A stretch of DNA of 20,464 bases from a virus. The DNA lies in the UHGV virus genome UHGV-0121713; one strand, given 5' to 3'. The position numbers and the translations under genes were made by a program. The notes under the pieces are model-generated. The model was not told where the DNA came from and made no database searches. It saw nothing but the letters and a program-made list of their open reading frames with translations. Positions 1,744 through 17,794 of the stretch are shown here, one piece after another (position 1 is the stretch's first letter; every line of letters begins with the position of its first letter).

Positions 1744-1931
1744 AAAAAATGCCCTCCAATAGAGAGCATTTTTACTGTATGTATAACCAGTGTCAATGTA
1801 TGAAATCCTGCGACCATACATCTCACTGAAGCCATAATGAAGTAGGCTATTCTTTTTGCTATGTGATCATGTAACTTTTGCGGTTAACCTGTGGCTCATT
1901 TTTATTTTAGGCGCAGATATAAAAGCAAAAG

Positions 1932-2123
1932 TTATCGTGAGTTTTTAGTACAGATTTTTTTGGATTTACTAATAGTTCCATCATTGCAAACGAATTTGCC
2001 ATCAGAGGTACAGTGAGAAACACCTCCCTTTTTCCCTGAGCAGGGATAATTTCTAGCATAGGTAGCTAGTGGGTTTAATAACAAAGAACATGACAAAACC
2101 ACAAAAAATACCTTACCAAGCAT
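1932..2123 (-). CDS. Small cysteine-rich protein with a predicted signal peptide (63 aa), immediately downstream of cI; candidate lysogenic-conversion (moron) gene
   Basis: [23 protein letters not shown] then a Cys/Lys/Gly-rich mature part with 4 Cys. GGGAG Shine-Dalgarno about 8 nt upstream of the ATG; the start lies 15 bp after the cI stop on the same strand. Confidence 0.5.
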
Positions 2124-5492: not shown

Positions 5493-7903
5493 GTCATGCC
5501 GATATGAACAACTGCTGCGGCTTTAACGAAGCTGCCGCATCGTTCTCATGGAACAGCTCGAAAAAGGCCATTAACCCTTATCTGGACCCGGTGGAAGTTG
5601 CGCCGGTTTCTACGCTTTCAAACCTGATCACTCTGTACGCTGCCGATAACGAGCAGGAACAGCTGCGCCGTGAGGCGCTGAGTGATCAGGTCTGGGAGCG
5701 TTATTTCTTTAATGAATCCCGTGATCCTGTCCAGCGCGAAATGGAACAGGATAAGCTCATTAGTCGGGCAAAGCTGGCGCATGAGCAGCAGCGTTTTAAT
5801 CCGGATATGGTCATTCTGGCGGACGTCAACGCCCAGCCTTCCCATATCAGCAAGCCGCTGATGCAACGTATTGAATACTTCAGCAGCCTGGGCAGGCCAA
5901 AGGCTTATTCCCGCTATTTACGTGAGACGATTAAGCCATGTCTGGAACGACTGGAGCATGTACGCGACAGTCAGCTATCTGCATCTTTTCGCTTTATGGC
6001 AAGCCATGAAGGGCTGGACGGCCTGCTGATCCTGCCTGAAATGAGTCAGGATCAGGTGAAACGCCTGTCCACCCTGGTAGCTGCGCATATGAGTATGTGC
6101 CTTGATGCCGCTTGTGGCGATTTGTATGCCACCGATGACGTTAAGCCAGAAGAAATCCGCAATACATGGGAAAGGGTGGCAGCGGAAACCCTGCGTCTGG
6201 ATGTCATCCCGCCTGCGTTTGAGCAACTCCGTCGGAAAAGAAACCGCCGTAAACCCGTGCCCTATGAACTCATTCCGGGTTCGCTGGCGCGTATGTTGTG
6301 CGCCGACTGGTGGTATCGGAAATTATGGAAGATGCGTTGCGAATGGCGGGAAGAGCAGTTGCGTGCTGTCTGCCTTGTCAGCAAAAAAGCATCTCCCTAT
6401 GTCAGCTATGAAGCCGTGTTGCATAAACGTGAGCAGCGCCGTAAGTCGCTGGAGTTTTTCCGTTCTCATGAACTGGTGAACGAAGACGGCGACACGCTAG
6501 ACATGGAGGATGTGGTAAACGCCAGCAGCAGCAACCCTGCGCATCGCCGCAATGAGATGATGGCCTGTGTTAAAGGTCTGGAGCTTATCGCGGAAATGCG
6601 CGGTGACTGCGCCGTTTTCTACACCATCACCTGTCCGTCACGTTTCCATTCCACGCTAAATAACGGCAGGCCCAACCCGACCTGGACAAATGCGACGGTA
6701 AGACAAAGCAGCGATTATCTGGTCGGTATGTTTGCTGCATTTCGTAAGGCGATGCACAAAGCCGGGTTGCGCTGGTATGGCGTGCGGGTGGCTGAGCCGC
6801 ATCACGACGGCACAGTTCACTGGCACCTGTTGTGTTTCATGCGCAAAAAAGACCGCCGCGCCATTACAGCATTGTTGCGTAAGTTTGCTATCCGTGAAGA
6901 CCGCGAGGAGCTGGGCAATAACACGGGGCCGCGCTTTAAGTCTGAGCTGATTAACCCGCGCAAAGGAACGCCGACAAGCTACATAGCGAAATACATCAGT
7001 AAGAACATTGACGGGCGTGGTCTGACTGGCGAGATCAGCAAGGAAACGGGTAAATCTCTGCGTGATAACGCTGAATACGTGAATGCCTGGGCGTCTTTGC
7101 ATCGTGTTCAGCAATTCCGCTTCTTTGGCATTCCGGGGCGTCAGGCTTACCGTGAACTGCGATTGCTGGCTGGTCAGGCGGCAAGGCAAAAGGGGGACAA
7201 AAAAGCAGGTGCGCCGGTACTGGATAACCCGCGCCTTGATGCCATCCTGGCTGCTGCTGATGCTGGTTGTTTTGCCACCTACATCATGAAGCAGGGCGGC
7301 GTACTGGTTCCCCGTAAATATCACCTCATCAGAACCGCTTATGAAATCAACGAAGAGCCGACCGCCTATGGCGATCACGGCATTCGTATTTATGGCATCT
7401 GGTCACCCATTGCAGAGGGCAAGATCTGCACTCATGCAGTGAAGTGGAAAATGGTTCGTAAAGCCGTTGACGTTCAGGAGGCGGCAGCCGACCAGGGCGC
7501 TTGCGCCCCTTGGACTCGTGGCAATAACTGTCCCCTTGCTGAAAATTTGAACCAACAGGAGAAAGATAAATCAGCTGATGGGGACACCAGAACGGACATT
7601 ACCCGCATGGATGACAAGGAGTTGCACGATTACCTGCACAGTATGAGCAAAAAAGAGCGCCGGGAACTGGCTGCAAGGTTACGCCTGGTGAAACCGAAAC
7701 GGCGTAAAGACTACAAACAGCGAATTACAGACCATCAGCGACTGCAGCTCGTCTATGAGCTGAAGTCCAGAGGATTTGATGGTAGCGAGAAAGAGGTCGA
7801 TTTACTCCTTCGCGGCGGCAGTATTCCGTCAGGAGCAGGCCTGCGTATCTTCTATCGGAACCAGCGTTTGCAGGAAGATGATAAGTGGCGGAACCTGTAT
7901 TAA
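5489..7903 (+). CDS. A: P2 gpA-family replication initiation (rolling-circle nicking) protein, 804 aa
   Basis: Large protein at the end of the early operon with the size and position of P2/186 gene A. Contains a HWHLLCF-type histidine-hydrophobic motif and tyrosine-rich motifs ([10 protein letters not shown]) typical of rolling-circle initiators. Confidence 0.85.
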
Positions 7904-7972: not shown

Positions 7973-8015
7973 TTTACATCAGTAATATTATTATATACTG
8001 TAAATATAAACAGTA
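7973..8015 (+). promoter_or_regulatory. SOS-regulated promoter: -35 TTTACA (7973..7978), -10 TATACT (7994..7999), overlapping LexA box TACTGTAAATATAAACAGTA (7996..8015)
   Basis: 20-bp site matches the LexA consensus CTGT-N8-ACAG with an AT-rich centre and overlaps the -10, the classic SOS operator arrangement. It lies inside the ORF-track ORF beginning at 7955, which argues against that start. Confidence 0.7.
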
Positions 8016-8056
8016 GTTATCTATACAGTATTGTTTGCGGTGTCATAGGAGGAAAG

Positions 8057-8245
8057 ATGCAGGACTATTTTTTGGAGTCTTTGAAGCTCCAGCGCATTGA
8101 TTTTTTTCTTAAGCTTGTAGCGGCTAGTGAGTGTAGTGATGAAGAGAAGGGGCTGGCTCTGCAGTGGGTTTCTGAACTGACAGATGAACTCATGGCAAAA
8201 ATCAGAACCCACGAATACAACCGCTCAATGGATGTCATCAGCTGA
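8057..8245 (+). CDS. Small protein (62 aa), first gene of the LexA-controlled operon; possibly part of a Tum-like antirepressor module
   Basis: ATG 8057 preceded by AGGAGG; downstream of the LexA box; followed 10 bp later by the DinI-like gene. Confidence 0.45.
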   Translation: MQDYFLESLKLQRIDFFLKLVAASECSDEEKGLALQWVSELTDELMAKIRTHEYNRSMDVIS

Positions 8246-8255
8246 GGTGACTTTT

Positions 8256-8489
8256 ATGCGCATTGAAATAATGATCGATAAAGAGCAGAAGATTAGCCAG
8301 TCTACACTGGACGCCCTTGAATCCGAGCTTTACCGCAATCTGCGCCCTCTGTATCCCAAAACGGTAATCCGTATCCGTAAAGGTAGCTCTAACGGTGTGG
8401 AACTGACCGGACTGCAACCGGACGAAGAAAGAAAACAAGTGATGAAAATTATGCAGAAGGTGTGGGAAGACGACAGCTGGCTGCATTAA
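8256..8489 (+). CDS. DinI-family protein (77 aa), probably SOS-inducible; comparable to the DinI-like part of 186 Tum
   Basis: MRIEIMIDK...LDALESELYRNLRPLYP...VWEDDSWLH resembles E. coli DinI (MRIEVTIAK...) in length and in the acidic tryptophan-containing C-terminus. GAGGTGA Shine-Dalgarno upstream. Confidence 0.7.
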   Translation: MRIEIMIDKEQKISQSTLDALESELYRNLRPLYPKTVIRIRKGSSNGVELTGLQPDEERKQVMKIMQKVWEDDSWLH

Positions 8490-8933
8490 GAAATGTTGCC
8501 CCCAGGAGGATTCATTCTAATGGGGGCTAGTTTGGGCAACGAGTGAAACGAGGCGTAAGGTGGGTAATCATTTTGATAAGTGATCGCCCACTTTGTGCCA
8601 AAAGCGGACATCGCAGATATGACAATATGTTAGTCAACCGCGATTAGATCAGTCAGTTGGAGATGGGGGGAAGTTACAAAAACTTGTCGTCCGCCATCTC
8701 CGACTACGGGTATTCTTAACTGTACATGCTCTTTCAATCGATGATTTTTGAGTAAGTGACTAACCTATTGTTTTGATAGTAATTAAACGTATAAACGTGC
8801 GGAGTTAATTTGAAAGTTATGTGTCTATGTTTGACAAGCAAAATTTTAAAGATTGGTTTTATCCACAGGTAATTTATGCTATTAATAGCCTCAAGCCCTG
8901 TAATTATTTTTATTTAAATGGATAAATTTGAAA

Positions 8934-11054
8934 ATGAGTACATATCATAATGATCAGCCAATACTAGGTGGTCAAAATGACCCCGATTTATTAAACAGGC
9001 TCGATTTTGCAAATCACTTGGCAAATATTCTACTATTAAATCACAATGATGATTGCCTTACTGTATCTATAGAGGCAGAGTGGGGATATGGTAAAACGTC
9101 AGTGATAAATCTTATAAAAGGTGCTTTGAATGAAAAGGAGTTCTTACCAATAATAATAGAATATAATCCATGGCTGGCCGGTCAACCTGAATCCTTGATT
9201 CAGGATTTTTTATTACAGTTCTCTTCACAACTAAATATTAAAGACAATTCAAAAGCTGCTTTGGAAGCTTCAAAAGAATTAATTGCATACTCCAATCTCT
9301 TCAGTGTAGCAAAACTTATTCCAGGGACAGAACCTTGGGCATCTATCATAGAAAAAGTCCTCTCTAATTTTGGGAGTGCTACTAAAAAGATTGCTGAATT
9401 AAAAAAACTGGATCTTTTAGGTAGAAAAAAACAAGTAGAGAAGGCAATAAAAAAAATAAAAAATCCTATTGTGGTAATAATTGATGATATTGATCGATTG
9501 ACTCCTGCAGAAACTTTTCAAGTTTTACGATTGGTTAAAGCAGTTGCAGATTTCTCAGGAACTTCTTTTTTACTTGCATTTGATCCTAATTATTTGATTT
9601 CTGTGCTTGATAAAAATAATATCGTCAATTCTTCGGAGTATCTTAATAAAATTGTTCAACTTCGAGTCCCACTTCCTGTAATCTCAGAAAGGGGTATGAA
9701 TGAACTTGCAAATGCAGAACTGGAAAAGATAGCTAATAAATCTTTAACTGACAGATTCGAAAGTGATCAAGAAAGACTAAGCTGGATTTATCATAATTAT
9801 TTTAAAAAACTAATTAAGAATCCGAGAGAGTTAAAAAGATTTTTTAACCATTTGAGATTCGTTTTAGAGCAAATTGAAGGGCAGGTATGTTTTTCTGATC
9901 TCTTTGCTTTATCTCTGGTCGCCACTAAATCGAGTTTGGTATACGAGCATATTAAAAGCACACCAGAGGCATATATAGGGAAGAGATTCACTAATGATGG
10001 CCTTTTGATGGATAAACCTCAAGATATTGTGGATAGATTTAGTGATGAGCGAAATAAGAAACTGAGTAATTTTTCTGATCAAGAGCGTTCAGTGATGCAG
10101 GAACTCTTAGGAGATATTTTCCCACTTCTACAGTCAAGCGGGTATTCTCATTATGGGGTTTCTGATCCCGATACAGCAGGAAGGGTTTCTGCACCACAAA
10201 GGCTTCATATTGCGTTTCATTATAAAACTCCAGCAGGGTATATTTCTGATCATGATATTATCAGTTTCATTAATGGAGATGTCAAAAGAAACGAATTTCT
10301 AAGAGATGTGCTCTCGCAAAATGCAGAAGAAAGATTTTTTGAAATGATGAATAATTATTCGAGTTATTGTAAGGATAATAGTTTTGAAATATTAACGTGT
10401 ATTTATGATACTTTTCTGTTTTCTCAAGAATTGAAATCCTCATTGGAAAGAAACTATGGTTTTTTGACAAAAGATCTTTATAGAAGGATGAATTGGCTCA
10501 CTAATAAGGTAATATCTGAAAGTGATGATAAATATGGGTTAATAAAGGGGGTTGTAGGTAGGCATGAGAATGCGCCACTTGGTGCAGACGTATTATGCCA
10601 AGCTCGTAAACAGATTCAAAATGGATGGAATGACAAAATATGGGTTAGTATTGAAGAATTGGCTGAACTTGAAGGTATCTTTCAACAGGTGGCTATTAAA
10701 GTTTTAAGTGATAAAATATATTTTGATTATCATCTTGAATCTCATATATTTTTCGAATTAAAGAGAGTTTCATCTCAATTTACATCAGAGTTTATTGCTT
10801 CTGTATTATCAAGTGATGGCCTGATTAGGATGTGTGAGATTATTGGTGAAACAGGTAGTGATTCAACAAATGGCCCTTATTTTAAGTTTGATGAAATTTA
10901 CTTCGGGGAAATACTTGATGTGAATGAACTTCGAAATAAAGCGAAAAATTTAGATTTTTCAATTTATCCCACACGCATTCAAGCTGTACTTAAGAGTATT
11001 CTGGATGGACAAAAATATTATTTGAGAGATGCAACTGTTGGTGAAGATTGGTAA
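8934..11054 (+). CDS. KAP-family P-loop NTPase (PifA-like), about 706 aa; candidate abortive-infection/defence protein
   Basis: Walker A EAEWGYGKTS (about 9072..9101) and KAP-type Walker B IVVIIDDIDRL (about 9465..9500). Gene is visibly AT-rich with several A7-A8 tracts, unlike the flanking phage backbone. ORF-track start 8928 is TTG; the first ATG is 8934. Confidence 0.7.
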   Translation: MSTYHNDQPILGGQNDPDLLNRLDFANHLANILLLNHNDDCLTVSIEAEWGYGKTSVINLIKGALNEKEFLPIIIEYNPWLAGQPESLIQDFLLQFSSQLNIKDNSKAALEASKELIAYSNLFSVAKLIPGTEPWASIIEKVLSNFGSATKKIAELKKLDLLGRKKQVEKAIKKIKNPIVVIIDDIDRLTPAETFQVLRLVKAVADFSGTSFLLAFDPNYLISVLDKNNIVNSSEYLNKIVQLRVPLPVISERGMNELANAELEKIANKSLTDRFESDQERLSWIYHNYFKKLIKNPRELKRFFNHLRFVLEQIEGQVCFSDLFALSLVATKSSLVYEHIKSTPEAYIGKRFTNDGLLMDKPQDIVDRFSDERNKKLSNFSDQERSVMQELLGDIFPLLQSSGYSHYGVSDPDTAGRVSAPQRLHIAFHYKTPAGYISDHDIISFINGDVKRNEFLRDVLSQNAEERFFEMMNNYSSYCKDNSFEILTCIYDTFLFSQELKSSLERNYGFLTKDLYRRMNWLTNKVISESDDKYGLIKGVVGRHENAPLGADVLCQARKQIQNGWNDKIWVSIEELAELEGIFQQVAIKVLSDKIYFDYHLESHIFFELKRVSSQFTSEFIASVLSSDGLIRMCEIIGETGSDSTNGPYFKFDEIYFGEILDVNELRNKAKNLDFSIYPTRIQAVLKSILDGQKYYLRDATVGEDW

Positions 11055-11170
11055 TACTTTTATAGGCATGCTTAGAGATGATGGAGTATCTTTTTCTCCC
11101 TTTTGAGGAAGTGATTTCCAACTGGGCATGGATGCCACATCAAATGGACAGTTGTTGTCACCTGTCAGTT

Positions 11171-11240
11171 AGCTGCTATTTGTTTATAGCAGCTGAAAGC
11201 CCACTACATAGTTACACCAGAAGGAGTAACAATGTAGTGG
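11171..11240. repeat. Two adjacent strong inverted repeats (hairpins) in the intergenic region after the KAP gene
   Basis: IR1: agctgctat (11171..11179) / atagcagct (11186..11194), perfect 9-bp stem. IR2: ccactacatagttac (11201..11215) / gtaacaatgtagtgg (11226..11240), 14 of 15 bp paired with AAGGAG in the loop. The 10-mer CCACTACATA recurs at 11478..11487. Confidence 0.5.
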
Positions 11241-11496
11241 ATAGCTAAATTTGACCACCTTAACAGATATGTTAATTTCCCCCCTCGCTCACAGCGGACT
11301 TTCATCTTTGTAAACCCTTATAATTCGCTTTTCAGCGGTCATTCAGATACGGATTTACGCTTTCCTTGGCAGTGCATGACTATGACGCATGAGATCGCAT
11401 GATCGTTTGAGGATCGTTTTTGCTGAGGCCAGCCAGAACTGGCGTGCTTTTGCTTATGTCATGCAGGTGCATGAAAACCACTACATAAAGTGGGCA

Positions 11497-11515
11497 GGCG
11501 TGGCGGGGATACGAG
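11497..11515. other. Candidate cos (cohesive-end) remnant of the P2/186 family
   Basis: GGCGTGGCGGGGA (11497..11509) matches the first 13 nt of the 19-nt P2/186 cohesive end as I recall it (GGCG[A/T]GGCGGGGAAAGCA[C/T]); the next 6 nt diverge. It sits in a local GC-rich patch inside otherwise AT-rich cargo. Not verified by alignment. Confidence 0.3.
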
Positions 11516-11645
11516 CGCGCGCTAACTCTTGGCTTTGTTTCATAATCAAAAATGTGATCATTGAGATTATTCTTAATTTTATGTTTGTCTATGAAATATC
11601 ATTTCGCTTAACATTGTTTGAGTTAGGACTACATGAGAATAAAGA

Positions 11646-12221
11646 ATGCTTTTACCCGTAAGTGTTACATCGTGTGGCTTGTATCACCCCTACTGGCATT
11701 TGGGAGAGCGCAACCCTCATAGCGATGAACTATCAAGGCAGATGATGGATTTTAAGGATGAAAATAATCGTAATCATCAAAGGGCTATTAACCGTTTTTC
11801 TCGATTAGCTATAGATAAGGTTGGGCGGTTAGTAATCAGAGGTGGCGGTGGGCGTTTTGTTGAGTCTCCTTTTTCGATAGCAGTCGTCCCATCTCACACT
11901 GAAGGCAGAATTTCACCGGCTTTGATTGAGGTCGCCGAGCGAATCGTAAATGTTCACCGTCGGGGCATTGTTGATTGCTGTTTGGAAAGAACACGCACTG
12001 TTCCTAGCGCACATCGTGAAGGAGGAGATCGCTCAATTACTGGTCACATGTCTAGTATCAGAGTTAGGGGTGGTAACCTCATGGGGCGAAATGTGTTACT
12101 ACTAGATGATGTTAAAACAACAGGCGGTAGTTTGTCTGCGTGTTTTTATTTACTGGAGTCTGCAGGAGCTGGAGTTATAATGCCATTAGCTCTGCTAGAA
12201 ACTGCAAACTATGAGGAGTAG
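11646..12221 (+). CDS. Type I phosphoribosyltransferase (PRTase) domain protein, 191 aa; candidate defence effector (ShosT-like / ComF-like)
   Basis: PRPP-binding signature VLLLDDVKTTGGSL (hydrophobic stretch-DD-x-x-TTG). In-frame TAA two codons upstream fixes the 5' limit. Overlaps the next gene by 11 nt. Confidence 0.7.
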   Translation: MLLPVSVTSCGLYHPYWHLGERNPHSDELSRQMMDFKDENNRNHQRAINRFSRLAIDKVGRLVIRGGGGRFVESPFSIAVVPSHTEGRISPALIEVAERIVNVHRRGIVDCCLERTRTVPSAHREGGDRSITGHMSSIRVRGGNLMGRNVLLLDDVKTTGGSLSACFYLLESAGAGVIMPLALLETANYEE

Positions 12222-13185
12222 CAAAGTGCACTCAGAAGAATTAAAAAATACACTTGGATTAGCTATTCAAATCGGGAAGCTAGCATCTGATCAAAGTGTA
12301 TTGAAATTCTTTGAGCTTATTGATTTTGATGTTATTCGTGATATACGCGACTTAACTGAGATGGTTAATAGCCACGGGTTTCTAAAAGATAAAATATCTG
12401 AGACTGATTTTCTAATAGCGAATGCTGAATTGGAGAACCACCATGTTAATGGTGTGGAGCTAATACCATATGGGTCTGAATTCTATCCTCTTAGTTTAGC
12501 GTTTACTCCTAATCCACCATCAATTCTCTACATAAAAGGGGATAAAAGTATACTAAAAGAATTGCCGGGTGTCGCAATTGTAGGATCCCGTGATACTTCC
12601 CCTGCAGGGGAAGAAATAACGAGGCGAATCACTAATCAGATAGTGTCTGCTGGGTATATTGTTGTAAGTGGGTTAGCAATAGGCACTGATGCGAATGCTC
12701 ATAAGGCAACGTTACAAGCAAAAGGAAAAACCATTGCTGTCTTGGCGCATGGTCTTGAGGAGGCTAAGCCGAAGCAAAACAGTCGACTTGCTCAAGAGAT
12801 TCTGGATAAAGGTGGTGCATGGATTTCTGAGTATCCTATGGGGCGACCGGCCCAGAAACAATCATTTGTACAAAGAAATCGGATACAAGTTGGATTATCT
12901 GCAGGTTCAATTTTAATCGAGGCTGCGTTAAATAGCGGAACGATAACTCAAGCTGAGTTTGCAAATAAGGCTAAAAGACCAGTGTTTGCGGTTGTACCTC
13001 ACCTACCTAATAATCCGCTTAATCTTAATTGTGAGGGAACAGTTGATTTAGTTAAGAGCAACATGGCTAGAGCGTTAAAAACAAAACGGGATTATGATGA
13101 TGTGATTATGATCATAAATGAGTCTCGGGAGTATTTGTTAGAGCTAAAATGGCCAGGGAAACAGAGTACATTAGACTTGATTTAA
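12211..13185 (+). CDS. DprA/Smf-like (SLOG-superfamily Rossmann) protein, about 320 aa; candidate defence partner (ShosA-like)
   Basis: DprA core motifs VAIVGSRDTSPAGEE and IVVSGLAIGTDANAHKA, then TIAVLAHGLEE and RNRIQVGLS. Start is ATG 12211 or GTG 12226 (the latter has a GGAG Shine-Dalgarno at 7-nt spacing). Confidence 0.75.
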   Translation: MRSSKVHSEELKNTLGLAIQIGKLASDQSVLKFFELIDFDVIRDIRDLTEMVNSHGFLKDKISETDFLIANAELENHHVNGVELIPYGSEFYPLSLAFTPNPPSILYIKGDKSILKELPGVAIVGSRDTSPAGEEITRRITNQIVSAGYIVVSGLAIGTDANAHKATLQAKGKTIAVLAHGLEEAKPKQNSRLAQEILDKGGAWISEYPMGRPAQKQSFVQRNRIQVGLSAGSILIEAALNSGTITQAEFANKAKRPVFAVVPHLPNNPLNLNCEGTVDLVKSNMARALKTKRDYDDVIMIINESREYLLELKWPGKQSTLDLI

Positions 13186-13209: not shown

Positions 13210-13866
13210 CTAAATTTGATATCTCTCGAATTTTATAATTTCTTCACCGCTCCAATGATTAAATTCTTTCATTCTTTTTTGTAATGGTAATAATTCATTT
13301 TTCACAAATACCTTACTAGCTTTTTCTACATCCCCAAATCCCCCAACATTATTAGGCATTATCCCCATCATCTGTGGCGGAACGCGATGTGCTGCCATCA
13401 TGTCATCCCGGCTCACGTTCTTGATATTTAGAAACTCATCCTTCGCCGCAACTTCTGACAAAGGGATGATCTGAAGGCCGTCCTTTTTGCCGTTAGGCGA
13501 GTACATAAACAGGTTGCGGAAGTTACCCGGACCTTTGGCACTTTTCATTGCATTGCGGAGGTTGTTCACGTCCTCCTGGTTCTGCGCAGCATCGGTCATG
13601 TACATGATGAAGCCTGCATGACTACCGTTAATGTAATACTTGCGGCGGAACAGCGTGGCGGACTCATTGAGCAGGGCGGACGGAATGGCAGAAAGATAGC
13701 TGGGCAGGCCGTAGATCTCCTGGTTAATGTCCGGTTCCATCAGATGAAAAATGCTGCCTTTCGTGAACTGATACGGCTGGGTTGTCATACCGTATTGCAC
13801 AAACCAGTAGGTATCCAGGTCTAACCCGCGTCGGGTGTATTTTGCCAGAGCAGGCTCAAGGGCGAC
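13210..13866 (-). pseudogene. Q: 3' fragment of the portal gene Q (P2 gpQ family), 5'-truncated by deletion
   Basis: Encodes about 218 aa of portal-like C-terminal sequence (...YINGSHAGFIMYMTD...LQIIPLSEVAAKDEF...). The open frame runs upstream into unrelated sequence; the N-terminal third and the adjacent terminase P are absent. Upper boundary is approximate. Confidence 0.65.
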
Positions 13867-14054
13867 AACGACAACACCGGATTGAGGAACTGAAACGTGA
13901 GAACGAGGATTTACGCCGCTGGGCTGATACACCTTTGCCTGCTGACATTATCCGGCTGCGGGAACGCCCCACACTCACCGGAGGTGCAGATTACCGTCAG
14001 TGGTTGTCCGCGAGTGACGCCGTGTCGGCTGGGACAGGCAGCGCCGCGCACTAA
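13866..14054 (+). pseudogene. lysB: 3' fragment of lysB (Rz-like inner-membrane spanin), 5'-truncated
   Basis: Coiled-coil, charged C-terminal peptide ...HRIEELKRENEDLRRWADTPLPADIIRLRERP directly upstream of R, as in P2 (lysA-lysB/lysC-R-S). No holin or endolysin upstream. Boundary approximate. Confidence 0.45.
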
Positions 14055-15088: not shown

Positions 15089-15295
15089 ATGAACGCACAA
15101 TTAACCGAAATCATGCGCCTTATCACCAACCTGATCCGCACTGGTGTAGTCACCGAAGTGGACCGGGAAAACTGGCTTTGCCGGGTGAAAACGAGCGACC
15201 TTGAAACCAACTGGATTAACTGGCTGACGCTGCGCGCGGGTAAACGCGCTGCCGCAGGACAAGCGCCTGTCTGCCATGACTATGTTGTTTGGTAA
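15089..15295 (+). pseudogene. V: 5' fragment of baseplate spike gene V (68 codons), truncated
   Basis: MNAQLTEIMRLITNLIRTGVVTEVDRENWLCRVKTSDLETNWINWLTLRAGK resembles the P2 gpV N-terminus; the frame ends after 68 codons where tape-measure-like sequence begins in another frame. Confidence 0.6.
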
Positions 15296-16082
15296 AGAGT
15301 TTGGCGATGACGCGGCGAAACTGGCAAACAACCTGCCGGAACTGCAGCGTCAGTTAAAACTGACAGCGGGCAATGATGCGCTTGGCTCCATGCAGAAAGA
15401 ATCCGACATTAACAAGGATTCACTTTCTGCGCAGTGGTTGCTGGTCAAAACCGGAGCGCAGAACACCTTCAGCAGCCTGGGCGAAACGCTGCGCCAGCCG
15501 CTGATGGATATTCTGTACACGGTGAAAAGCATCACGGGAGCGTTGCGCCGCTGGGTGGAAGCTAACCCGGAACTGACAGGCACACTGATGAAAGTATCGG
15601 CTGTTGTGGCTGCGGTTACCGTCGGCCTCGGCACCTTAGCGGTGGCGCTGGCTGCAGTGCTGGGGCCGCTGGCAGTGATCCGTCTGGGATTCTCTGTGTT
15701 GGGTATCAAAACGTTATCTTCCGTTACGGCAGCAGTAACTCGAACCAGCAGCGCGTTGTCCTGGCTGGCTGGCGCACCACTGGCACTGCTGCGACGCGGG
15801 CTTGCTTCATCGGGCAACGCCGCAGGTTTACTTACTGCGCCGTTGTCGTCTTTGCGCCGCACGGCATCACTGACGGGAAATGTCCTGAAAACTGTAGCAG
15901 GTGCGCCGGTTGCACTTTTGCGGTCTGGATTATCCGGTTTACGTGCTGTTGCTGTGATGTTTATGAATCCTCTGGCGGTACTGCGCGGTGGACTGGCCGC
16001 CGCAGGCACGGTGCTGCGAGTACTGGCATCTGGTCCACTGAATCATTGTCCGATATGTTCGGTGATCTCAGTGCGCAACTGA
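15276..16082 (+). pseudogene. T: Internal fragment of tail tape-measure gene T
   Basis: Ala/Leu/Gly-rich repetitive hydrophobic segment typical of tape-measure proteins; only about 268 codons, abutting the V fragment. W, J, I, H, G, FI, FII, E and most of T/U are absent. Confidence 0.55.
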
Positions 16083-17636: not shown

Positions 17637-17650
17637 AACAAAAAACCCAT
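17637..17650. repeat. Candidate attR core: AACAAAAAACCCAT, identical to 603..616
   Basis: Exact 14-bp direct repeat of the left boundary, located between ogr and the ybjL 3' end. Confidence 0.45.
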
Positions 17651-17682
17651 CAACCTTGAACCGAAGTAGCGGGGTTGATGGG
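17637..17682 (-). terminator. Intrinsic terminator of ybjL (minus strand)
   Basis: Stem cccatcaacc (17646..17655) / ggttgatggg (17673..17682), followed on the minus strand by a U-run (the + strand A-run at 17641..17645). Confidence 0.5.
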
Positions 17683-17794
17683 CTCCACAAAATGGGGGCA
17701 TCAAAGAAAAGCAGTGGCACTAATTAAGACTGATGCCCTGCGGAAAAGTTCTGCGGTTGTGCAAAAAAATTTCATTTTCAGGGCAACTTCAGTT

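Follow-up and report, generated by a model that had tools for sequence, protein, structure and literature searches.

A probable SOS induction operon (tumA-tumB) of the 186/Fels-2/DuoHS type in a deleted P2-like prophage of Escherichia coli

The SOS operon p95-tum of phage 186 has been described by Lamont 1989, Brumby 1996 and Shearwin 1998, as these are cited in PMC7708051 and as the operon is annotated in NC_001317. In the view of Lemire et al. 2011 (PMC3121763), antirepressor and DinI sequences appear to have been fused in the 186 Tum protein, and phages Fels-2 and PSP3 carry tum split into two genes according to the same paper. The upstream gene of PSP3 is given there as an antirepressor on the basis of a personal communication, cited by way of Bunny et al. 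2002. The antirepressors of the Gifsy and Fels-1 prophages bind the repressor and do not cleave it (PMC3121763). In E. coli HS, which carries the prophage DuoHS, the gene 'tum' (ECHS_RS04495) was deleted by Ortiz de Ora and colleagues (Nat Microbiol 2025, PMC12055606; preprint PMC11195241), and mitomycin C-induced lysis and viral foci were lost with this deletion as well as with lexA(Ind-) (PMC12055606). Dependence of induction on LexA and Tum has been shown by others both for DuoHS, which is near-identical to the prophage investigated here, and for 186.

The stretch of DNA analysed here, called the window (UHGV virus genome UHGV-0121713; 20,464 nt), is a piece of E. coli chromosome reaching from rcdA to past ybjL, and it contains a P2-like (Peduoviridae) prophage. 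The prophage genes are arranged in the order int, a 63-aa ORF, cI, an apl/cox-like gene, cII, fil, three small genes, dam and A, followed by two tum ORFs, a cargo block, remnants of structural genes, D and ogr. Comparison with the intact prophage of E. coli BE311 revealed 6 mismatches over ~20,460 positions and the loss of three internal blocks (L001 14870-21793, 23174-31891 and 32694-34020), with 2-6 nt of microhomology at the deletion junctions. The missing blocks carry most of the portal gene, both terminase subunits, scaffold, capsid, holin and lysozyme, and also baseplate, tail fibres, sheath, tube and most of the tape measure. An earlier interpretation made from the letters of the DNA (the sequence-only reading) had taken the prophage to be dead and unable to make virions; since terminase, capsid, lysis and most tail genes are gone relative to BE311, this premise is correct. 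The genes int, cI, apl-like, cII, fil, dam and A are intact. The first deletion junction was found in none of 5,426 complete E. coli genomes, indicating that the deletions either are confined to the source strain or arose as an artefact of assembly.

Gene A (Pfam Phage_GPA, 2e-127) ends at position 7903, and the operon begins 70 nt further on, which is the start of the gpA-gpQ variable region. LexA sites were scored with a heterology-index (HI) matrix of the Berg-von Hippel type, trained on the 18 E. coli LexA boxes in Table 4 of PMC3009722. The features of the locus are:

7973-7978, plus strand: -35 hexamer TTTACA of the tum promoter, the counterpart of 186 p95, assigned from sequence and conservation
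7994-8001, plus strand: -10 region, either TATACT at 7994-7999 (15-nt spacer) or TACTGT at 7996-8001 (17-nt spacer), both overlapping box 1
7996-8015, no strand assigned: LexA (SOS) box 1, TACTGTAAATATAAACAGTA, with both arms of CTGT-N8-ACAG intact
8011-8030, no strand assigned: second LexA box, degraded and overlapping box 1, CAGTAGTTATCTATACAGTA, HI 11.8-12.8
8057-8245, plus strand: tumA-type gene for a 62-aa antirepressor candidate, with the Shine-Dalgarno sequence AGGAGG at 8047-8052, 4 nt before the ATG
8256-8489, plus strand: tumB-type gene for a 77-aa DinI-family protein, with its own Shine-Dalgarno sequence
8498-8527, plus strand: G+C-rich hairpin just after tumB, with no T-run (MFE -19.5 kcal/mol, z -1.87)

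With a probability of about 0.9, this locus is the SOS induction operon (tumA-tumB) of a P2-like prophage of the 186/Fels-2/DuoHS type. No terminator was called after tumB in a terminator scan, and the hairpin at 8498-8527 is at most a weak or partial terminator. The one Rfam match was the host sRNA RybB. Similarity to HS and Fels-2 does not extend past the tumB stop codon. The cargo that follows tumB comprises a PifA-like KAP NTPase and a ShosT/ShosA-like pair; this is where Rousset et al. 2022 (PMC9122126) located the gpA-gpQ defence hotspot.

The 62-aa ORF showed no match in Pfam, NCBIfam, PADLOC or PDB sequence searches, and pairwise BLASTP against 186 Tum yielded no alignment at E <= 100. 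Among the PHROG profiles it fell into phrog_698 (E 3.6e-38) and also matched phrog_8554, a Yersinia 'tum protein' family (E 2.4e-8), and phrog_1993, the family of PSP3 TumA and the 186 Tum N-terminus (E 2.2e-3). In the reverse direction, residues 7-44 of 186 Tum matched phrog_698 at 2.4e-5, and the Yersinia 'tum protein' links all three families. A motif of roughly ERI..h..+h.A...C...+..AL.hh.E was common to the 62-aa ORF, the Tum N-terminus and TumA in a multiple alignment. Because pairwise similarity was not detected by BLASTP, the homology of TumA and Tum is a matter of profiles, with E values from 2e-3 to 2e-8. The window TumA differs from ECHS_RS04495 of E. coli HS at 1 of 62 residues, and a dN/dS of 0.05-0.12 indicates purifying selection on the protein. 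The 62-aa 'hypothetical protein' can be named a TumA-type antirepressor, which in the window has the standing of a candidate.

The 77-aa protein (TumB) matched Pfam PF06183 over residues 14-76 (E 1e-22; 80.7 bits, the curated threshold being 24.2), and shares 41% identity with residues 71-145, in the C-terminal half, of 186 Tum (E 2e-24). It could be aligned end to end (residues 1-75) with E. coli DinI (PDB 1GHH, E 2.5e-6), with which it has a C-terminal W-E-x-D-x-W motif in common. Against the NCBIfam DinI equivalog NF007893, however, it scored 42.7 bits, below the cut-off of 111, indicating that TumB is a phage paralogue and not the host DinI. TumB is likewise under purifying selection (dN/dS 0.03-0.13); in the window it shows a lineage-specific L54P change, and 1 of its 77 residues differs from HS. 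In the Fels-2 record, the DinI gene is likened to PSP3 TumB. Members of the DinI family act on RecA, and TumB, as one of them, probably binds RecA filaments and tunes the SOS signal. The sequence-only reading had made itself dependent on a similarity of the ORFs to Tum or DinI, and such similarity was found (41% identity to Tum, the Pfam DinI family and the PHROG links). The alignment of both ORFs to 186 Tum, which it had proposed as a check, succeeded for the DinI-like ORF and failed for the 62-aa ORF in pairwise comparison; for the latter, a relationship emerged at the level of profiles.

It is very improbable that TumB is the real or a jointly required antirepressor and that the 62-aa ORF has no role beyond that of a leader, or of an ORF to which tumB translation is coupled. 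In 186, antirepressor and DinI-like part form one polypeptide, and a weak hairpin at 8234-8251 spans the tumA stop codon and the tumB Shine-Dalgarno sequence, so that removal of tumA could alter the translation of tumB. This hairpin was, however, not significant (z -0.85), and an attenuation or translational-coupling model of the operon was dropped for this reason. In E. coli HS, the primers NHR24 and NHR28 (PMC12055606) define a deletion that joins the ATG to the TGA of exactly the 62-aa ORF and spares the DinI gene and its ribosome-binding site, primer NHR28 leaving both the Shine-Dalgarno sequence and the ATG of tumB in place; formally, this deletion could still act through tumB translation. 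Furthermore, conservation of TumA is at the level of the protein, and its homology is to the non-DinI half of Tum. A LexA box and a tumA-like gene with no adjacent DinI gene annotated were seen in ESSI-2, ev040 and YenM_06.16-2, and in Gifsy non-polar deletions of dinI had no effect on induction (PMC3121763). An operon with TumA as the antirepressor candidate is the preferred reading.

Hardly likely, too, is an operon captured by the host, which would be retained in the dead prophage for a host SOS function, modulation of RecA by the DinI paralogue, and would no longer be a prophage switch. What is known of the DinI family, namely its action on RecA, agrees with such a function. BTP5, a P2-like Salmonella prophage with no detectable phage, in which tum is the most expressed, stress-responsive transcript (PMC7067206), also speaks for it. 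The deletions in the window nevertheless look recent, as judged from the 6 differing positions of ~20,460 and the absence of the first junction from 5,426 genomes, which leaves no time for selection on the remnant as such, and CI and the early operon are still intact targets. The prophage switch is the reading followed below.

Both ORFs of the pair claimed by the sequence-only reading are real, with a Shine-Dalgarno sequence at the 62-aa ORF and a Pfam DinI match of 1e-22 for the second ORF. Whether they were a split Tum gene or a true two-gene module had been left undecided, and the answer is that tumA-tumB is a true two-gene module and not a split tum: both genes are named in PSP3, the pair is described in PMC3121763, and purifying selection acts on each gene separately. 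The same two-ORF arrangement was observed in phages or prophages of Escherichia, Salmonella, Klebsiella, Yersinia and Citrobacter and in an Erwiniaceae genome, and among 5,426 complete E. coli genomes, 1,125 (~21%) were found to have the module. A 186-type tum broken by a stop or frameshift, with the ORFs decaying in a dead prophage, might be suspected from the two ORFs lying in different frames and 10 nt apart, from their lengths of 62 and 77 aa, which approximate the 146 aa of 186 Tum, and from the defective state of the prophage. This interpretation is in practice refuted, and we give it almost no weight: the two-ORF layout also occurs in intact phages and prophages of several genera, each ORF has a dN/dS of about 0.03-0.13 at dS up to 1.4 and a separate Shine-Dalgarno sequence, the PSP3 record names two genes, and loss of the upstream ORF alone ends induction in E. 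coli HS.

Box 1, with an HI of 2.4, was the top-ranked site when both strands of the window were scanned. It outscored 13 of the 18 training boxes, which span HI 0.6-12.8 in a leave-one-out comparison, and the lowest HI obtained in 200 shuffled windows was 5.71 (median 12.2). The sequence TACTGTAAATATAAACAGTA is present in a single copy in the window and was matched in none of 100 dinucleotide-preserving shuffles. These shuffle and training scores indicate that box 1 is real and far beyond chance. The near-consensus LexA box that had been claimed over the promoter was confirmed in this way, as a single-copy site of HI 2.4 covering the -10 in either hexamer arrangement, and matrix scoring, the check proposed for it, placed it first in the window and ahead of 13 of 18 real boxes. 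The exact 20-mer matched no paper in a full-text literature search.

A strong LexA box (HI 0.7-4.6) likewise precedes the tumA-like gene at a short distance in each of the nine related phages examined, where it has been kept although the flanking intergenic DNA is divergent or unalignable; its position in the window matches that in 186, PSP3, Fels-2 and six other phages. Scanning of species-representative genomes for the box gave only 4 loci, three of which are the same module. The fourth, in a Levyibacteriota MAG, is without tum genes and is probably a chance match. The SOS control claimed for the operon, and with it the LexA repression predicted in the window prophage, is supported by the strong box on the promoter core, by the equivalents in 9/9 phages and, indirectly, by the block of induction that lexA(Ind-) imposes at the 98%-identical DuoHS locus. 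That the palindrome arose by chance in A+T-rich sequence or is the operator of another protein, the operon not being LexA-regulated, is extremely improbable, for although the neighbouring DNA is A+T-rich and the promoter is no strong consensus match, the HI of 2.4 stands against a shuffle minimum of 5.71, both CTGT-N8-ACAG arms are intact, the box position is kept across nine phages with differing flanks, and the near-identical prophage was not induced in lexA(Ind-).

TTTACA is the only good -35 hexamer for either -10 candidate. It is kept as TTTACA or TTCACA in Fels-2, SopEPhi, MLG42, ev040 and 186, and the spacer diverges. In the 186 record, p95 is annotated with the -35 TTCACA, an 18-nt spacer and the -10 TACTGT, the LexA box starting from the first base of the -10. 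A generic sigma-70 scan called neither of the two -35/-10 arrangements of the tum promoter, the hexamers being weak by consensus, so the promoter was assigned by analogy and conservation. TATACT, which had been proposed as the -10 element under the box, does overlap it, sharing 4 nt with box 1, but its spacing as a -10 is only 15 nt, whereas TACTGT at 17 nt is the hexamer annotated for p95. LexA bound at box 1 would cover the -10 whichever hexamer is used.

In HS, Fels-2, SopEPhi and MLG42, box 1 ends in CAGTG and is overlapped by an intact second box, CAGTGG...ACAGTA, with HI 6.2-8.6. We take this double box to resemble the double SOS boxes of colicin promoters. A double box of the colicin type was not found in the window, where the second box is degraded. 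The difference lies at position 8015, which is A in the window and in BE311 and G elsewhere. The A turns box 1 into a perfect palindrome (HI 2.4; HS and Fels-2 have 4.3-4.5), and with it the CTG core of box 2 is lost (HI 11.8). It is a minority allele, found in 7 IMG/VR contigs as against at least 120 with G and the double box. The 8015-A allele may alter basal repression or the timing of induction, and LexA control should not be abolished by it. Either the degraded box 2 or the L54P change in TumB could change regulation or function.

Two further features lie on the int side of the prophage:

1773-1792, minus strand: second LexA box of the prophage (HI 4.4), lying exactly on the 17-nt spacer of a promoter (TTGACA-N17-AAAAAT), 30 nt ahead of the int start codon
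2139-2708, minus strand: cI, the 186-type immunity repressor and presumed target of TumA, with the Pfam domains Phage_CI_repr and Phage_CI_C

The window CI is 33% identical to 186 CI and scored 16.3 bits with Peptidase_S24, below the cut-off of 23.3; by its domains it appears to be a 186-type repressor without a self-cleavage domain. CI of BE311 and CI of E. coli HS have the same protein accession. To our knowledge, biochemistry of CI binding and operator release has been published only for 186 Tum. We infer the following course of events as regards CI binding by TumA, the function of TumB and what happens in the deleted prophage. In the undamaged cell, a LexA dimer on 7996-8015 would block the -10 of the promoter directly downstream of gene A. 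Upon DNA damage, RecA would become active, LexA would cleave itself, and a bicistronic tumA-tumB transcript would be made. TumA (62 aa) would then bind the 186-type CI and keep it from its operators, and the early lytic promoter would open because CI no longer binds there. TumB, the DinI paralogue, would probably adjust the strength or duration of the SOS response on RecA filaments. In the deleted copy, the early genes (apl-like, cII, fil, dam and A) would be switched on, followed by replication and possibly excision, with no lysis and no particles. BTP5, whose tum is strongly expressed although no phage is detected (PMC7067206), is a partial precedent. Derepression of the early operon by SOS should still be possible, since the immunity and early regions are intact, and a particle-less prophage should in this way still answer DNA damage with early genes, replication and possibly excision. 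Such a remnant could make a difference to fitness under genotoxic stress and could also cross-talk with further P2-like prophages. Derepression of the remaining early operon and a possible action on RecA, both expected by the sequence-only reading, are plausible.

The LexA box at the int promoter lies outside the tum operon. It was also found in HS and BE311 and is absent from the int-cI regions of 186 and PSP3. Its context is kept in 113 of the 120 IMG/VR contigs with the 20-mer, these contigs being close relatives. A literature search for LexA-regulated int in P2-like phages gave no relevant match.

Phages with 100% identical TumA, among them 813R9, Kp4860-7 and Cartapus, were found to have CI proteins that are 37-58% identical to one another. 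The N-terminal HTH domains of these repressors are 59-81% identical to each other, as against 36-48% to 186 or PSP3, and their C-terminal domains, at 25-58% identity, resemble each other no more than they resemble 186. Identical TumA with divergent CI would fit the hypothesis that TumA recognises the N-terminal domain of CI and works across immunity types. Were TumA to act in this way, heteroimmune P2-like prophages that share a cell with a dead prophage could be induced by it in trans. We regard it as rather unlikely that the remnant is actively wired into the SOS response to the extent that its TumA trans-induces heteroimmune P2-like prophages and that the int box puts excision under CI-independent SOS control. 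For annotation, the name TumA-type antirepressor can be given to the 62-aa ORF beside the 'DinI-like family protein' in about one fifth of complete E. coli genomes, and the promoter of this ORF can be placed in the SOS regulon.

Among the known systems, DuoHS of E. coli HS is in the same rcdA / ogr-ybjL attachment site as the window prophage. Its CI, apl-like, CII and Fil accessions are shared with the BE311 prophage, itself near-identical to the window, and its tum region, with the genes ECHS_RS04495 (tum) and ECHS_RS04500 (DinI-like), is 98% identical to that of the window. DuoHS differs in being intact and lytic, in a box 1 that ends in CAGTG and is accompanied by an intact second box, and in carrying other cargo after tumB. 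PSP3 and Fels-2 (STM2728/STM2726.1) have, as does the window, two genes behind a LexA box after A, a small antirepressor gene followed by a DinI homologue. The Fels-2 TumA is 98% identical to the window TumA, and in the Fels-2 record the 62-aa ORF is annotated as similar to EcHS_A0919 of E. coli HS. The PSP3 record has the entry 'similar to 5' end 186 tum; UV induction of prophage' for tumA, and for tumB it gives 'similar to dinI and 3' end of 186 tum'. PSP3 differs from the window in its TumA, which belongs to phrog_1993 and has 12% identity with the window TumA in the alignment, and in its CI of 286 aa with a duplicated N-terminal domain.

The p95-tum operon of 186 agrees with the window in its site after A, the LexA box starting from the -10, the TT(T/C)ACA -35, the combination of an antirepressor with a DinI-like part and the 186-type CI. 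In 186, however, the two parts are fused in one Tum protein of 146 aa, internal starts of which yield a free DinI-like form, a single LexA box is present, orf97 comes next in the same operon, and the likeness to the window in the N-terminal part is at profile level only. The Gifsy and Fels-1 prophages (GfoA, GftA; PMC3121763) also have a LexA-repressed operon of a small antirepressor and a DinI homologue, but there dinI comes first, the phages are lambdoid, and repressors and antirepressors are unrelated. The tumA-tumB SOS operon is, accordingly, already known and ordinary, and the understanding of 186-type induction is unchanged by its presence in the window. Relative to these systems, only three points are new, and mildly so: the allele of box 2, the presence of a LexA box at int, and a TumA that does not diverge along with CI.

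A second LexA box, also strong, was found at the integrase promoter of the defective prophage.

1773-1792, within the minus-strand promoter at about 1767-1800: second LexA box, CACTGGTTATACATACAGTA, heterology index 4.4 (18-box E. coli LexA matrix)

The box occupies the 17-nt spacer that separates a perfect TTGACA from AAAAAT, and the start codon of the integrase (int ATG at 1743) lies 30 nt downstream of this promoter. The box was kept in the E. coli HS prophage DuoHS and in the intact, near-identical prophage of E. coli BE311, and its context was conserved in 113 of the 120 IMG/VR contigs bearing its 20-mer. It was absent from the int-cI regions of both phages compared, 186 and PSP3. The placement of the box suggests that int is under direct SOS control; a literature search on LexA regulation of int in P2-like phages found no paper describing this box.

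At the tum promoter, base 8015 is A in the window and in BE311, where others have G. The A makes LexA box 1 (7996-8015) perfect and destroys the overlapping second box (8011-8030), which is present in HS, Fels-2, SopEPhi and MLG42. This allele was found in seven IMG/VR contigs, compared with at least 120 carrying the double box. The window and BE311 also share a proline at codon 54 of TumB (8415-8417; GLQPDEE), immediately ahead of the C-terminal acidic helix; the residue is leucine in HS, Fels-2, SopEPhi, MLG42 and two genomic loci. The 21-nt LexA-box pattern also recurs exactly in a Candidatus Levyibacteriota MAG contig (L011, 5679-5699), probably by chance; neither tumA, tumB nor gpA was found near it.

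Among phages with 100% identical TumA, the CI repressors were just 37-58% identical (window cI, 2139-2708, against comparison loci L015-L019). In this set, identity was 59-81% across the N-terminal helix-turn-helix domains and 25-58% across the C-terminal ones, which are as diverged from each other as from 186. An additional small ORF lies between cI and int.

1932-2123, minus strand: 63-aa ORF with a hydrophobic N-terminus and several cysteines

No family match was obtained for it in the domain and family search, and it is labelled hypothetical in the BE311 and HS annotations. It possibly encodes a secreted moron product; in PSP3, an unrelated DUF2511 gene occupies its position.

Three internal deletions were evident against the intact BE311 prophage, each junction with 2-6 nt of microhomology.

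13864-13869: deletion junction 1
15239-15243: deletion junction 2
16039-16040: deletion junction 3
17637-17715, minus strand: rybB, host sRNA gene (Rfam, 97.7 bits)

Because junction 1 was found in none of 5,426 complete E. coli genomes, the deletions are either private to this strain or an artefact of assembly. At its ogr end the prophage directly adjoins rybB. Of the six positions at which the window and BE311 differ, three (17666, 17668 and 17698) lie in this gene, a hint that the attachment site overlaps it.

Directly after the tumB stop codon begins a defence cargo (8928-13185), at what in P2-like phages is the gpA-gpQ hotspot. Read-through from the LexA-controlled tum promoter might extend into this cargo, in the way that transcription takes in orf97 in phage 186.

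8928-11054: PifA-like KAP P-loop NTPase (PADLOC, 1e-64)
within 8928-13185, listed between the NTPase and the ShosT-like gene: 90-aa ORF
11646-12221: ShosT-like phosphoribosyltransferase
12211-13185: ShosA/DprA-like protein
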